A model generated the notes under the pieces. It did not search any database and was not told the DNA's origin. It worked only from the letters and a program-made list of their open reading frames with translations. From the NCBI GenBank assembly GCA_963675785.1, contig OY776562.1, forward strand, positions 2,592,001 to 2,656,000: a DNA stretch of 64,000 bases, in the 5' to 3' direction. The stretch's first letter is position 1, and each line of letters starts with the position of its first letter. This document shows, one piece after another, positions 46,462 through 53,426 of this stretch. This stretch comes from Anaerolineae bacterium. GTDB taxonomy: Bacteria; Chloroflexota; Anaerolineae; UBA1429. A program made the position numbers and the translations under genes.

Positions 46462-46490
46462 TTGCAAAGCATACCCCCCTATAGTATAAT
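46462..46490 (+). promoter_or_regulatory. Promoter P1 of ferritin/encapsulin locus with CsoR-type operator 2 (ATACCCCCCTATAGTAT, 46471-46487)
   Basis: TTGCAA-17 nt-TATAAT; operator matches 23878-23894 at 16 of 17 positions. Confidence 0.75.
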
Positions 46491-46541
46491 GGTGCCGATC
46501 AGTTATGGGCACAATGCTCTATCAGGCTCGTTCTTAATACC

Positions 46542-46570
46542 TTGACCTTGCATTTCGCAACAGTTATACT
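46542..46570 (+). promoter_or_regulatory. Second promoter P2 of the locus
   Basis: TTGACC-17 nt-TATACT; TTGC-N5-GCAA inverted repeat in the spacer. Confidence 0.55.
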
Positions 46571-46618
46571 TTTTATGTTAGCTTTTTCATATCTCTCGCC
46601 GTTCAAGTTGAGGAAACT

Positions 46619-47074
46619 ATGCCTGCGTTCTCTGATATTCTCCGCATAGCTATCCGCCGGGAAATGGATAGTTATGCCCTGTATACGCAAACCGCCGAAA
46701 TGGTGGAATCGTCCTCCGGCAAAGAGCTCCTTCACGATCTTGCCAAACAAGAGGCCCTGCACCGCGAAAAACTGGAACAGCTTTTGGAGACAGGATCGGT
46801 CGATCTCGATTCCAACGCTGAAAAGCGCGTTGTCGATCTCAAAATCACCGATTATCTGGTCGAACCCCAGTTAGAACGTGGCTCAGACTTTCAACAAATT
46901 CTTATTGTTGCTGCTAAACGGGAAAAGGCCGCCTACGATCTGTATCTTGCCATGGGGCAGGTTACAGAAGACAGCCAGATCCGTAGCCTTTTCGAGTTTC
47001 TCGCCGGCCAAGAACTGGAGCACAAACAGAGGCTCGAAATCTTTTATGACGACATCGTTCTACGCGAAAACTAG
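46619..47074 (+). CDS. Rubrerythrin-like ferritin-family protein (no rubredoxin domain)
   Basis: AIRRE..Y, QEALH, AAKRE..Y, QELEH diiron motifs. Confidence 0.88.
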   Translation: MPAFSDILRIAIRREMDSYALYTQTAEMVESSSGKELLHDLAKQEALHREKLEQLLETGSVDLDSNAEKRVVDLKITDYLVEPQLERGSDFQQILIVAAKREKAAYDLYLAMGQVTEDSQIRSLFEFLAGQELEHKQRLEIFYDDIVLREN

Positions 47075-47094
47075 CAATTGAGGAGTAAGAAACA

Positions 47095-47256
47095 ATGAAA
47101 TGGGAATGCCTGGTTTGTGGCTGGATTTACGACCCCGCTGTGGGCGATCCTGATGGCGGCATTGAACCCGGTGTCGCCTTTGAAGACCTCCCAGATGACT
47201 GGGTGTGCCCTGAGTGTGGTGCGACCAAAGACATGTTTGAGGCTATCGAGGAATAA
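47095..47256 (+). CDS. Rubredoxin (53 aa; absent from the ORF track)
   Basis: [61 protein letters not shown]. Confidence 0.96.
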
Positions 47257-47409
47257 GCTTTGCAATTGCGCCCCAAAAAAACGCTGATCAGCAGTCAGAT
47301 AGCCTAGCAGAAAAGAACGTTAGGCAAAACGGGTGCTTGCGTATGTGCCCAGTAGCCGATGTCTTTTGGGCATCTTTTTCATTATGTAAAGACTAGAGAC
47401 GGAGGCATT

Positions 47410-48333
47410 ATGCAGGACAAGATCATAGAAATGCTGCGCGCAGACATGCGCGGCGAGCATCAAGCCATCATACAATACCTGTTCCACGCCTATGCCATGG
47501 GTGAAGGCGAACTGGCCTGTGAAATCGAAGCCATCGCCCGCGAGGAAATGCGCCACCTCGATTGGTTGGCCGACGCCATCATCGAACTTGGCGGAGATCC
47601 TTCCATGGACCGTGACCCCGTTGATTTTGCCATGGACCTTGTAAGCGCTCAGATGGCCAAAGATGTCATTCTTGAAGAAAGGGCCATTGCTCAATACCGC
47701 GCTCATATGGAAGCCATTGAGGACGAAAAAATTCGCCGTCTTTTGGCGCGCATCGTCCATGACGAGGAATCGCACCATGGCGATTTTGAGCACTTTGTCG
47801 AAAAAACCGCAGCAGAAGAACAAGCAACCGAAGGCGCCGAGGCACCCGCTCCCTCTCCCATGGCTCAGCGCTTGGCTGAGATCCTGAACCAGGGTATTCA
47901 CCACGAGTACAGCGTTCTTTTACAATATATTTTCCATTCGTTCGTTGCACCAGATAAGGAACGGGCGGAAGAGCTACAGAACATAGGCATCAATGAGATG
48001 CAACACATGGGCTGGCTTGCTGAGGAAATGATGGGCATGGGAGGAATGCCCATATTTGAGCATGGCGATCTCGTGCTTACCCATGATATGGAAGAGGCAT
48101 TGGAAGCTGATATTGAGGTCGAGCGCGAGGTGACTAACACCTACAGTCGACAGATTCCCGAAATCGATGACCCCGGCATCAAGAGCCTTATCGAGCGCAT
48201 TCGAGACCACGAGATCTATCACGATGCCGTCTTTACCGATCTACTGGAAGAAACGCGCGAGCAGGAACCAGAGAAGAAACCTGAAGACAAAAAGACGTCA
48301 ACCCCACCCAGCGTGGGTAGTCTTAAAAAGTAG
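47410..48333 (+). CDS. Tandem bacterioferritin-like protein; encapsulin cargo with C-terminal targeting peptide
   Basis: Two four-helix bundles (E..AI.QY..H, EEMRH/NEMQH, DEESH/HEIYH); charged linker ending PPSVGSLKK. Confidence 0.88.
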   Translation: MQDKIIEMLRADMRGEHQAIIQYLFHAYAMGEGELACEIEAIAREEMRHLDWLADAIIELGGDPSMDRDPVDFAMDLVSAQMAKDVILEERAIAQYRAHMEAIEDEKIRRLLARIVHDEESHHGDFEHFVEKTAAEEQATEGAEAPAPSPMAQRLAEILNQGIHHEYSVLLQYIFHSFVAPDKERAEELQNIGINEMQHMGWLAEEMMGMGGMPIFEHGDLVLTHDMEEALEADIEVEREVTNTYSRQIPEIDDPGIKSLIERIRDHEIYHDAVFTDLLEETREQEPEKKPEDKKTSTPPSVGSLKK

Positions 48334-51797: not shown

Positions 51798-51810
51798 GGG
51801 AGTAAACACC

Positions 51811-52323
51811 ATGACGGTGACTGTCTATTCAACCCCGACCTGCCCGTATTGCGTGCAGGTCAAGCGATATCTGGAACAAAAGGGCATCACGTATAACGAC
51901 ATTGACGTATCGCGCGACTCGACGGCGGCCGCAGAAATGGTGCGCATCTCGGGTCAGCGCGGAGTTCCTGTGACAGTGATCGATGAACACTTTGTTGTGG
52001 GATTCGATCCTTCCCAACTGGACCAACTGCTTTCCAGCGCCAGACGTCCTCGCCTTGGGGCTGCCATCGCCGACGCTGAAACGATGGCCCAACAGGGCAA
52101 ATGCGTCGAAACAGTGGGCGCCTATGTGGGCGCTGTCCGCCCAGAATCTGTTGCCGGACGCGCCAGCATAAAACCGGGCGATGTCATCATCTCCATAGCT
52201 GGGCAACCCATAAGGCATGCCAGCGATATAGAAAGGCTGCTACCAAGGATACACCCCGACCAGCGCGTGCCGCTTATCCTCATTCGGGGAGACCAGCAGC
52301 AAGAAGTGTACCTCCGTTTCTAG
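51811..52323 (+). CDS. Glutaredoxin (CPYC) - PDZ fusion protein
   Basis: YSTPTCPYC, SGQRGVPV, VGFD; then RLGA..GAYVGAV.P.SVA.RA.I.PGDVI.SI.G. Confidence 0.88.
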   Translation: MTVTVYSTPTCPYCVQVKRYLEQKGITYNDIDVSRDSTAAAEMVRISGQRGVPVTVIDEHFVVGFDPSQLDQLLSSARRPRLGAAIADAETMAQQGKCVETVGAYVGAVRPESVAGRASIKPGDVIISIAGQPIRHASDIERLLPRIHPDQRVPLILIRGDQQQEVYLRF

Positions 52324-52343
52324 CACCCAAAGGGGGGAAAACA

Positions 52344-52835
52344 ATGGCAGAGATCAGCACAGATTGTTGGGCACTCAACCAAGCACTGGAACTGGAACAA
52401 GAGGGCTATGACTTTTATCAGCGAATGGCAGGCAGCGTAACGGACGCCGCCTGTAAAGACACTTTTGCTTCACTCGCTGACGACGAAAGACACCATGCCG
52501 ATCTGATCACGCAGCAAATCAACCAGATTGAGACCTGTGGCATTTTCGTACGCCTGCCTGGCGTAGAGCCCGTCGATATCGACATCGATGTTCGCCTTTA
52601 CGCTCCGAGCATGGACACCAACAAGGATTTGGGGGAAAAGGCTACGGAAATCCAGGCCATGCACATCGCCCTGGATACTGAAATTCGCACTTATAACATG
52701 TACCGACATGCTGCGGCAAATACCGAGGACAAGGCAGGCCAGGAGATGTACCGTTGGCTGGCCGCAGCGGAACTGACGCATTTCAATTTGCTCATGGCCA
52801 ACTACCAAGCAATGACTGGCCTGGGCTATATCTAG
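52344..52835 (+). CDS. Rubrerythrin-like ferritin-family protein
   Basis: ALELEQEGYDFY, DERHH, ALDTE...Y, AELTH. Confidence 0.85.
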   Translation: MAEISTDCWALNQALELEQEGYDFYQRMAGSVTDAACKDTFASLADDERHHADLITQQINQIETCGIFVRLPGVEPVDIDIDVRLYAPSMDTNKDLGEKATEIQAMHIALDTEIRTYNMYRHAAANTEDKAGQEMYRWLAAAELTHFNLLMANYQAMTGLGYI

Positions 52836-52855
52836 TATCGAAAGGAACTGCCTTC

Positions 52856-53383
52856 ATGGATAAGCAAGCTGCTTTGGATGTCATCAAGAGGGGCATGTCC
52901 ACCGAGATCTGGGGGCTGCGCTTTTACGAACAGGCCGTTGCCCGCACCAAAGATGAGATGGGTAAGCAGGTCTTCCAGTCGCTCTTGAATGACGAAGAAG
53001 AACACCTAACCATTCTGCGTGGCGAATATGCCTCAATAGAATGCAATAGTTGCTGGATCAGCCGTGACCAAGCCGTCAAAATGGCTGAACAGGTTGAACC
53101 CACCGATATCTTCCCGGATGCCAAGAGCGCCGAACAGCTCATCCCCGAGGGTGCCTCTGACGAGGATGCGCTCAAGATGGCCCTTGATTTTGAAAGGCGC
53201 GGCTATGACATGTATGCCGAGCAGGCAGACAAGGCTACTTCAGCAGATGCCAAAAAGATGTGGGGCTACCTTGCCAAAGCAGAAAACGCTCACTATGCCT
53301 ATCTCGACAAGAGCCTTGATTTTCTTGCCTCAAATGGTGTTTGGTATTTCGACGAGAATGAACTGCCCTTCTTTGAAGGCTGA
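52856..53383 (+). CDS. Rubrerythrin-like ferritin-family protein
   Basis: STEIWG..FY, DEEEH, ALDFERRGY..Y, AENAH; C-terminal WYF..ELPFFEG. Confidence 0.87.
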   Translation: MDKQAALDVIKRGMSTEIWGLRFYEQAVARTKDEMGKQVFQSLLNDEEEHLTILRGEYASIECNSCWISRDQAVKMAEQVEPTDIFPDAKSAEQLIPEGASDEDALKMALDFERRGYDMYAEQADKATSADAKKMWGYLAKAENAHYAYLDKSLDFLASNGVWYFDENELPFFEG

Positions 53384-53394
53384 TTCGGCTCAAC

Positions 53395-53426
53395 AAAAAA
53401 GGGGCGGCAAATTGCCGCCCCTTTTT
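53395..53426. terminator. Bidirectional terminator
   Basis: AAAAAAGGGGCGGC-aaatt-GCCGCCCCTTTTT. Confidence 0.88.

Follow-up and report, generated by a model that had tools for sequence, protein, structure and literature searches.

A conserved encapsulin operon of Anaerolineae with a probable role in oxygen defence and iron sequestration

A window of 64,000 nucleotides from an Anaerolineae bacterium (the whole stretch analysed here: contig OY776562.1, positions 2,592,001 to 2,656,000) carries nine genes, g1 to g9, grouped around a family 1 encapsulin shell gene and the gene for its cargo, a double ferritin-like protein (DFLP). The others code for a rubredoxin, three small stand-alone di-iron proteins, the two subunits of a 2-oxoacid:acceptor oxidoreductase (OFOR) and a protein that joins a glutaredoxin-like domain to a PDZ domain (Grx-PDZ). 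A preliminary description of this DNA had seen nine co-oriented genes between rnpB and a strong terminator, and in fact all nine were recovered on the plus strand from open reading frames (ORFs), Pfam and NCBIfam (Table 1). The nine cluster genes are inherited together. We read them as an operon, conserved in anaerobic Anaerolineae, that serves defence against oxygen and peroxide and sequesters iron, with the tagged cargo and its family 1 encapsulin at the centre, and give this reading a probability of about 0.6.

The nine genes and their products

Gene identities come from the ORF list together with Pfam and NCBIfam searches, and that of rnpB from Rfam. The ORF of g3 opens at 47359, and its likeliest start is the ATG at 47410, which has a GGAGG 4 nt upstream and coincides with the start of the homologues. 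The product had been described as a tandem, bacterioferritin-like cargo, and this description holds: Pfam finds two ferritin-like stretches, both are complete EEHEEH di-iron domains, a tag is present, and the protein is a DFLP homologous to TmDFLP, aligning with PDB 9viw over residues 4-281 at 7.6e-42. The ligands of the first domain (E16, E46, H49, E89, E119, H122) and of the second (E166, E196, H199, E238, E268, H271) are invariant among the 20 sequences of our alignment of homologues (A1), as are the tag motif, P-[ST]-[VI]-G-S-L, and, in both domains, a methionine that follows the first ExxH glutamate. The window's protein ends in ...PPSVGSLKK, and its stop (48333) lies 14 nt 5' of the start of the shell gene. 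Only this tandem protein had been said to carry a targeting peptide, and a regular-expression scan of all nine proteins finds the motif in g3 alone. The C-terminus of OFOR alpha, FTVEYI, fits a loose [LF]x[VI]xx[LI] pattern and was considered as a second tag; we rejected it because it has no glycine, is not conserved (FTAEYI, FTPDYI, LTAGYI and others) and also occurs in loci without encapsulin.

The g4 product meets the models for family 1 encapsulins (PF04454, 161 bits against a cut-off of 24.3; NF041155, 178 bits against 100). Its closest solved relative is EncA of M. xanthus (1.4e-38), and it is the sole encapsulin in the window's genome (a single match in G000), which holds one ferritin-family gene besides those of the cluster.

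Three proteins, g1, g8 and g9, had been called rubrerythrin-like. The name stands in that they belong to the Rubrerythrin family of Pfam and have complete E/ExxH/E/ExxH di-iron sites (in g8 E18, E48, H51, E113, E143 and H146, invariant in alignment A3), but Pfam finds no rubredoxin-like domain in them. A classical rubrerythrin query against the window's genome matches none of the three at E 1e-4 and hits only C1:3031473-3032015; this result gives no support to the idea, taken from the DFLP preprint discussed below, that g1 and the rubredoxin are a recently split rubrerythrin. The closest solved relatives of g1 are 2fzf and 1vjx, uncharacterised ferritin-like di-iron proteins, and that of g8 is 2fzf (8.3e-10 with a profile). 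By sequence g9 has no solved relative, and its atlas neighbours are Rubrerythrin-family clusters. The small di-iron proteins match NCBIfam models for encapsulin ferritin-like cargo and for the ferritin-like domain of MbfA, an iron exporter, weakly and below cut-off. Orthologues of g9 share a C-terminus, ...ELPFFEG, and those of g8 end in an aromatic-hydrophobic pair, mostly ...GGWV or ...TWA, which in the window reads ...GLGYI (52815-52832). These conserved C-termini may be docking motifs.

The rubredoxin, g2, reaches 95.8 bits with NF045768 (cut-off 90), has the pair CLVCG and CPECG, and is the only rubredoxin found in the genome (a single PF00301 match in G000). Both OFOR subunits lie above their cut-offs (g5, TIGR03710, 661 bits against 482.75; g6, TIGR02177, 336 bits against 261.9), and the closest solved relatives of g5 are 5b46 from Sulfolobus and 6n2n from Magnetococcus. 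Neither Pfam nor NCBIfam finds a 4Fe-4S ferredoxin domain in g5 or g6, and there is no ORF of that kind between the cluster genes. A second OFOR, of the multi-subunit type, is coded elsewhere in the genome; thus, the cluster OFOR is an extra copy. The Grx-PDZ protein, g7, is recognised by TIGR02196 (102 bits, cut-off 88.55) and by PF17820 (39.7 bits, cut-off 27).

Table 1. Features of the cluster and its boundaries, in window coordinates (aa, amino acids; nt, nucleotides; TPP, thiamine pyrophosphate)
Feature	Position	Strand	Evidence or remark
rnpB (RNase P RNA)	46071..46442	+	Rfam RF00010, 315 bits; upstream boundary, outside the cluster
Putative sigma-70-like promoter, TTGACC-17-TATACT	46542..46570	+	Consensus scan; 49 nt 5' of g1
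g1, stand-alone di-iron four-helix-bundle protein, 151 aa	46619..47074	+	PF02915 6.1e-14
g2, rubredoxin, 53 aa	47095..47256	+	PF00301 2.4e-24; NF045768
Rubredoxin-to-DFLP spacer, 153 nt	47257..47409	+	Site of a reductase-like gene in most relatives
g3, DFLP, encapsulin cargo, 307 aa	47410..48333	+	Pfam; PDB 9viw
PSVGSL targeting motif of g3	coded at 48307-48324	+	
g4, family 1 encapsulin shell protein, 260 aa	48348..49130	+	PF04454 3.7e-47; NF041155
GC-rich hairpin 3' of the shell gene, weak T tail (TTTTG)	49139..49158	+	
g5, OFOR alpha, gamma domain fused in front, 573 aa	49201..50922	+	POR, POR_N, PFOR_II; TIGR03710
g6, OFOR beta, TPP-binding, 290 aa	50925..51797	+	PF02775, PF12367; TIGR02177
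g7, glutaredoxin-like (CPYC) + PDZ, 170 aa	51811..52323	+	PF00462 1.1e-19; PF17820 4e-10
g8, stand-alone di-iron protein, 163 aa	likely 52344..52835	+	PF02915
g9, stand-alone di-iron protein, 175 aa	likely 52856..53383	+	PF02915 2.4e-10
Intrinsic terminator, cluster end	53396..53426	+	14-bp stem, 8 GC pairs, then T run

Conservation of the neighbourhood

Relatives were collected from the side of the cargo. There are 3213 DFLP homologues at E <= 0.001, and a one-genome-per-species scan with alignment A1 gave 411 relatives, the best 80 of which (L002-L081) were taken with 10-kb flanks and searched by tblastn with the nine window proteins; the encapsulin protein, used by itself as query against genome contigs, retrieved no relative. 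Nearly all of these 80 loci come from metagenome-assembled genomes of Chloroflexota. Tag and shell go together: encapsulin lies directly 3' in 37 of the 37 loci with a tagged DFLP and in none of the 42 untagged ones, 36 of which have at least 1.2 kb downstream, the remaining locus running off its contig. The encapsulin match of L008 (10981-11906) is in two pieces, covering 35% and 70% of the query and about 110 nt apart; a frameshift, an inserted sequence or faulty assembly could explain the split.

Twenty-nine loci, whose encapsulin shares at least 47% identity with that of the window, make up the window type, and the cluster is kept across these 29 species-level genomes at 47-59% shell identity. 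A conserved neighbourhood of encapsulin, OFOR and rubredoxin had been the first check proposed for the preliminary description, and its outcome is strongly positive. The OFOR alpha gene starts less than 500 bp 3' of the shell gene in 18 of the 19 window-type loci whose sequence runs on for 2.5 kb or more past the shell gene (the exception is L003), while in five more OFOR is cut off at the contig edge. In L051 it stands upstream instead, and in L035 g8 and g9 directly follow the shell gene, with no OFOR. A rubredoxin gene lies within 2.5 kb upstream in 27/28, and 16 loci have the full set of nine (15/16 when counted among loci with enough flank on both sides). Adjacent OFOR genes are found at none of the eight loci with a more distant encapsulin, four of which have OFOR elsewhere in the locus, and an OFOR is present at 9 of the 42 untagged loci. 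Encapsulin and the window's OFOR clade also occur together in three further gene orders.

The reciprocal test started from OFOR, in 121 genomes drawn evenly from the class, 118 of them with some OFOR-alpha-like match. Around 30 OFOR alpha matches with at least 47% identity and 10 with 37-44%, we took some 9 kb of flanking DNA in either direction and searched these regions with the cluster proteins. At 20 of the 30 close loci there is at least one gene for a di-iron protein, rubredoxin, Grx-PDZ, classical rubrerythrin, superoxide-reductase-like (SOR-like) protein, flavodiiron protein, DFLP or encapsulin; two others show a weak reductase-like match only. Seven have encapsulin, in four gene orders. 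The ten distant loci have no di-iron, rubredoxin or encapsulin gene, and a peroxiredoxin gene occurs in one. In a tree of OFOR alpha (FastTree, 67 sequences, midpoint-rooted, read for topology only) the 22 encapsulin-adjacent loci form one clade, within which the window's protein branches first, and encapsulin-near loci sit at three other positions. Taken together, these neighbourhoods appear to mark out an OFOR clade that belongs to oxygen-defence clusters rather than to central-metabolism contexts.

Most relatives have larger clusters than the window. About 1.5 kb separates the genes for rubredoxin and DFLP in 22 of 27 loci, and in L002 (8528-9949), L009 (8720-9958) and L014 (8688-9962) the ORF in this gap codes for an FAD-dependent pyridine-nucleotide-disulfide oxidoreductase of 412-424 amino acids. 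The gene was found by tblastn in L088, L089 and L092 as well and, judging by spacing alone, it is probably present in the remaining loci with a gap of about 1.5 kb. The best NCBIfam matches of the copy in L009 are of the NirB, PadH and NorW types, all below cut-off, so we call the enzyme only rubredoxin-reductase-like. It is missing from the cluster in the window and in five loci. The spacer of L004 keeps a decayed N-terminal remnant, and tblastn of the window's g2-g3 spacer detects no remnant. A homologue 35% identical to the relatives' cluster gene lies elsewhere in the window's genome, at C1:2214402-2215622.

Two more genes join the cluster in relatives. A DUF554 membrane-protein gene stands 3' of g9 on the same strand in 19 of 29 loci (for example L009:16069-16779), only 18 having at least 1.4 kb beyond g9; it looks like the regular last gene of the relatives' operon, and a search of the window's whole genome gave no DUF554 match. 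Six of 27 loci have a Fur-family gene as the immediate 5' neighbour of g1, in the same orientation: L002 (7401-7817), L005, L007, L013, L017 and L018. On this comparison the window holds a compact nine-gene version, to which most relatives add the reductase-like and DUF554 genes and some a Fur-family gene.

Other relatives have the cluster without a shell. L029, which was read whole, codes for an untagged DFLP, rubredoxin, flavodiiron protein, reductase-like enzyme, classical rubrerythrin and DJ-1, and further for an SOR-like protein, a peroxiredoxin, the same OFOR, a nitroreductase, Grx-PDZ and two di-iron proteins. The tblastn matches in L034, L037 and L038 include at least rubredoxin, untagged DFLP, OFOR, Grx-PDZ and di-iron genes. 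This encapsulin-less version is an oxygen-defence island, to which a subset of lineages adds encapsulin. About 3 kb 5' of the cluster in L020 (4848-5001), before an amino-acid kinase/ACT gene, is an unrelated S-adenosylmethionine riboswitch (RF00162).

Relatives also point to a redox role for Grx-PDZ. Its CxxC motif is invariably CPYC or, in 9 of 26 related loci, U-P/G-Y-C; the window has cysteine. In L004, L006, L011, L020, L025, L031, L060, L070 and L081 the codon of the first cysteine is an in-frame TGA, which suggests that these orthologues are selenoproteins, and this exchange of cysteine (Cys) and selenocysteine (Sec) probably marks the catalytic redox residue. PDZ domains bind C-termini, and that of the g8 orthologues is a conserved W-[VA]; Grx-PDZ and g8 were therefore tried as binding partners (alignments A2 and A3); the prediction returned a score of 0.24 and a mark of 0.32, with no verdict either way. 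The C-terminus of OFOR beta is an alternative candidate for the PDZ ligand.

Signals within the cluster can be compared in the same way. Intergenic gaps are 2-20 nt, save 153 nt between g2 and g3 and 70 nt between g4 and g5. A promoter-like sequence, TTGAC-17-TA(G/C)AAT, is kept 5' of g1 at the same place in orthologous loci, and a consensus scan of the window's 70-nt g4-g5 spacer gives no promoter-like site. The g4-g5 intergenic region folds into a hairpin of -20 kcal/mol or lower in 12 of the 19 orthologous loci, most of these hairpins lacking a T tail, a count that has no control-region baseline; in three orthologous loci the spacer is only 46-48 nt. The window's hairpin at 49139-49158 is possibly a partial terminator or an RNA-stabilising element.

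At the upstream boundary, rnpB stands directly 5' of the cluster also in L012 (1333-1741) and L015 (7431-7813). Past the terminator the next gene is AIM24 (53434-54114), on the opposite strand, and just 3' of the cluster, at 54521-58624 on the plus strand, is an ORF of 1367 amino acids with many hydrophobic stretches. Horizontal transfer was considered and dropped, GC being even (0.51-0.56) over the region, with no sign of a foreign island. TTGCAA-type palindromes occur in the g1 promoter region (46462-46570), in the g2-g3 spacer (47260-47271), 5' of the genome's other ferritin gene (C1:1556360) and 5' of one Fur-family gene (C1:965861); the hexamer itself has a genome-wide density of 0.2 per kb. 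Two Fur-family genes lie outside the cluster, at C1:633610-633963 and at C1:965931-966245; TTGCAA-N4-TTGCAA, a palindrome that occurs just once in the genome, stands 5' of the latter. A shared operator was rejected: the remaining six genomic TTGCAATTGC sites adjoin unrelated ORFs, and thus no regulon can be defined.

A proposed role and its alternatives

We envision a division of labour among the nine products. On exposure to oxygen the DFLP would oxidise Fe(II) and the shell would store the iron, away from peroxide. Rubredoxin would hand electrons to the di-iron proteins, which would reduce H2O2 or O2. OFOR would draw these electrons from pyruvate or another 2-oxoacid and pass them to rubredoxin, the only small carrier coded in the operon. 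In most relatives the rubredoxin-reductase-like flavoenzyme may provide a second input; its gene having been lost from the window's cluster, no cluster-encoded input but OFOR would be left there. Through the hairpin 3' of the shell gene, the RNA of cargo and shell may be kept at a higher level than that of the enzyme genes. A pairing of bacterioferritin with rubredoxin exists in Desulfovibrio. Pyruvate:ferredoxin oxidoreductases (PFORs) are reported to reduce rubredoxins in vitro, and PFOR to be protective in E. coli under oxidative stress (PMC13768988). In oxygen-stressed P. furiosus, rubrerythrin tubules are described around iron-filled ferritin-encapsulin particles (10.1101/2025.03.19.643997).

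In the wider genome no COX1 was found (completeness 94.8%), a classical rubrerythrin gene stands beside an SOR-like gene elsewhere, and a flavodiiron protein is coded at another place. The preliminary description had proposed an anaerobe's oxidative-stress setting; both the absence of COX1 and the encapsulin-less relatives, with their flavodiiron, SOR-like, classical rubrerythrin and peroxiredoxin genes, fit it.

A bolder version, which we consider improbable as a whole, makes the operon a 2-oxoacid-powered circuit independent of NAD(P)H. Electrons would run from OFOR to rubredoxin and on to three di-iron reductases and, once anoxia returns, to a conserved methionine-ligated haem of the DFLP, leading to dissolution of the iron core, with Grx-PDZ as a further catalytic member. 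If this were true, oxygen stress would load the encapsulin with iron and carbon metabolism would empty it again.

Several observations weigh against the main reading. Eight of the 30 close OFOR loci have no defence gene (three of the eight are on contigs of 4.3 kb or less), and L003 and L035 have the shell without an OFOR. Because the 22 adjacent loci form one clade, much of the 18/19 count reflects shared ancestry, not independent events; even so, OFOR and encapsulin are associated again in other arrangements. Transcription could stop at the 49139-49158 hairpin, ahead of the OFOR genes. Rubredoxin as the acceptor of OFOR is argued from gene content and precedent, and ferredoxins coded elsewhere could serve. 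NAD(P)H may still feed rubredoxin, given the reductase-like gene elsewhere in the genome. Finally, the peroxidase activity of g1, g8 and g9 is an assumption, since these proteins are missed by the classical rubrerythrin query, belong to an uncharacterised branch and have 2fzf and 1vjx as closest solved relatives.

Some of these points feed the alternative that survives best, in which the genes share regulation only, all of them being induced by oxygen. The cluster OFOR would be an oxygen-tolerant back-up that sustains 2-oxoacid metabolism when the multi-subunit OFOR is damaged, and it would not deliver electrons directly to rubredoxin, to the di-iron proteins or to the shell. We take this to be a serious contender, if an unlikely one. 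The genome does have the second OFOR that the idea calls for; the cluster enzyme has two subunits, lacks a detectable ferredoxin-like domain and resembles 5b46 and 6n2n; the protective effect of PFOR in E. coli (PMC13768988) would be in keeping with it, as would the eight loci of the OFOR clade without a defence neighbour. Yet the operon codes no ferredoxin while holding the genome's only rubredoxin, and OFOR stays beside the di-iron and Grx-PDZ genes through several rearrangements; the idea also assumes that the two-subunit type tolerates oxygen.

A second alternative, decidedly improbable in our view, is an iron-homeostasis unit under Fur-type control, in which OFOR and rubredoxin would mobilise the iron of the DFLP-encapsulin by reducing it and the small di-iron proteins would be ferroxidases or chaperones, not peroxidases. 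It accounts for the Fur-family gene 5' of g1 in relatives and for the weak, below-cut-off matches of the small di-iron proteins to cargo models and MbfA. It can also draw on the ferredoxins proposed to release iron from IMEF encapsulins (PMC8346489), on the invariant methionines of the DFLP and on the haem binding reported for DFLPs (10.1101/2025.09.13.676036). However, OFOR, Grx-PDZ and di-iron genes also occur in clusters with an untagged DFLP and no encapsulin, beside SOR-like, flavodiiron and peroxiredoxin genes, which points to oxygen defence. The Fur family includes peroxide sensors, so the regulator fits both readings, and the untagged rubredoxin has no evident route into the shell lumen.

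That the neighbours came to surround an ordinary encapsulin operon by chance, or through history alone, is very improbable indeed: the adjacent-type loci do form one OFOR clade, with an order that is partly inherited, but the arrangement recurs in many genomes, being conserved over the 29 species-level genomes at 47-59% shell identity, the same genes return in three other orders, distant OFOR paralogues have no such neighbours, and the genes are tightly spaced.

Known systems and what the operon adds

The cargo has described counterparts. In their preprint on DFLPs, Anuchina et al. report ferroxidase activity, haem binding and dimers for TmDFLP and CaDFLP, and argue that tagged DFLPs are encapsulin cargo (bioRxiv 10.1101/2025.09.13.676036; 9VIW is TmDFLP). 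Two-bundle "Bfr" cargos with C-terminal tags had been listed by Andreas & Giessen 2021 for a few Firmicutes, Aquificae, Chloroflexi and Cyanobacteria (PMC8346489). Like g3, the DFLPs have two four-helix ferritin-like domains per chain and a C-terminal tag with a conserved glycine, and the cargo gene lies directly 5' of a family 1 shell gene; rubredoxin and rubrerythrin-domain genes are also reported near the DFLP of C. acetigignens (10.1101/2025.09.13.676036). The C-terminal domain of TmDFLP has ESHEEH, whereas the window's DFLP has the full EEHEEH in both domains. The main text of the preprint does not mention oxidoreductase, oxoacid, glutaredoxin, oxidative stress, Chloroflex or Anaerolin, and thus the OFOR, Grx-PDZ and di-iron context of Anaerolineae is not described in that text. 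Cargo and shell belong to a known type, and what is new would be the operon context around them.

Two other encapsulin systems invite comparison. P. furiosus, likewise an anaerobe, responds to oxygen with an encapsulin that mineralises iron and with di-iron proteins of the rubrerythrin family (10.1101/2025.03.19.643997), but that system is archaeal, its ferritin-like domain is fused to the shell and its rubrerythrin is a classical one with a rubredoxin-like domain. The link there is physical, seen by cryo-EM, and the available text of the report mentions no OFOR, whereas the link in the window is known from genes alone. IMEF operons resemble the window in coupling an iron-storing family 1 encapsulin to a small iron-sulfur carrier proposed to bring electrons to the stored iron (PMC8346489). 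The IMEF carrier is described as a Bfd-like 2Fe-2S ferredoxin with an N-terminal TVGSL tag; the window's is an untagged rubredoxin, accompanied by an enzyme that could reduce it.

On the electron-supplying side, the OFORs of Sulfolobus tokodaii (5b46) and Magnetococcus (6n2n) are built like g5/g6, with a gamma-alpha fusion, a TPP-binding beta subunit and no detected delta domain. They work with ferredoxins in central carbon metabolism, in contrast to the window's OFOR clade, which lies in oxygen-defence clusters (20/30 loci) and beside rubredoxin. The defence system of NAD(P)H:rubredoxin oxidoreductase, rubredoxin, rubrerythrin, SOR and flavodiiron protein shares with the window the use of rubredoxin with di-iron proteins. 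The window's cluster differs in having no reductase, in adding OFOR and encapsulin, and in that its di-iron proteins are not classical rubrerythrins.

Our literature search, which covered the main text of papers, turned up no account of the conserved OFOR/Grx-PDZ/di-iron context or of the defence-island OFOR clade; operon neighbours may be shown in Fig. S1 of PMC8346489. Nor did it find a paper that joins encapsulin with Anaerolineae or, in the present sense, with a ferredoxin oxidoreductase; PMC11650866 names the genes but no cluster.

How electrons and iron travel in encapsulated ferritins, and how the shells are tied to the stress response, are still open questions in the field. Many uncultured Anaerolineae keep the same parts list, namely a shell, a tagged DFLP, a rubredoxin, three di-iron proteins, a Cys/Sec Grx-PDZ and a private OFOR. 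This list can be rebuilt in vitro and provides a testable electron source, and the window's genome is a natural minimal version, free of the reductase-like and DUF554 genes in its cluster. The OFOR clade of the defence clusters hints that 2-oxoacids may be a direct reductant for peroxide defence in anaerobes, and the operon as a whole suggests how iron shells are wired into oxygen defence.

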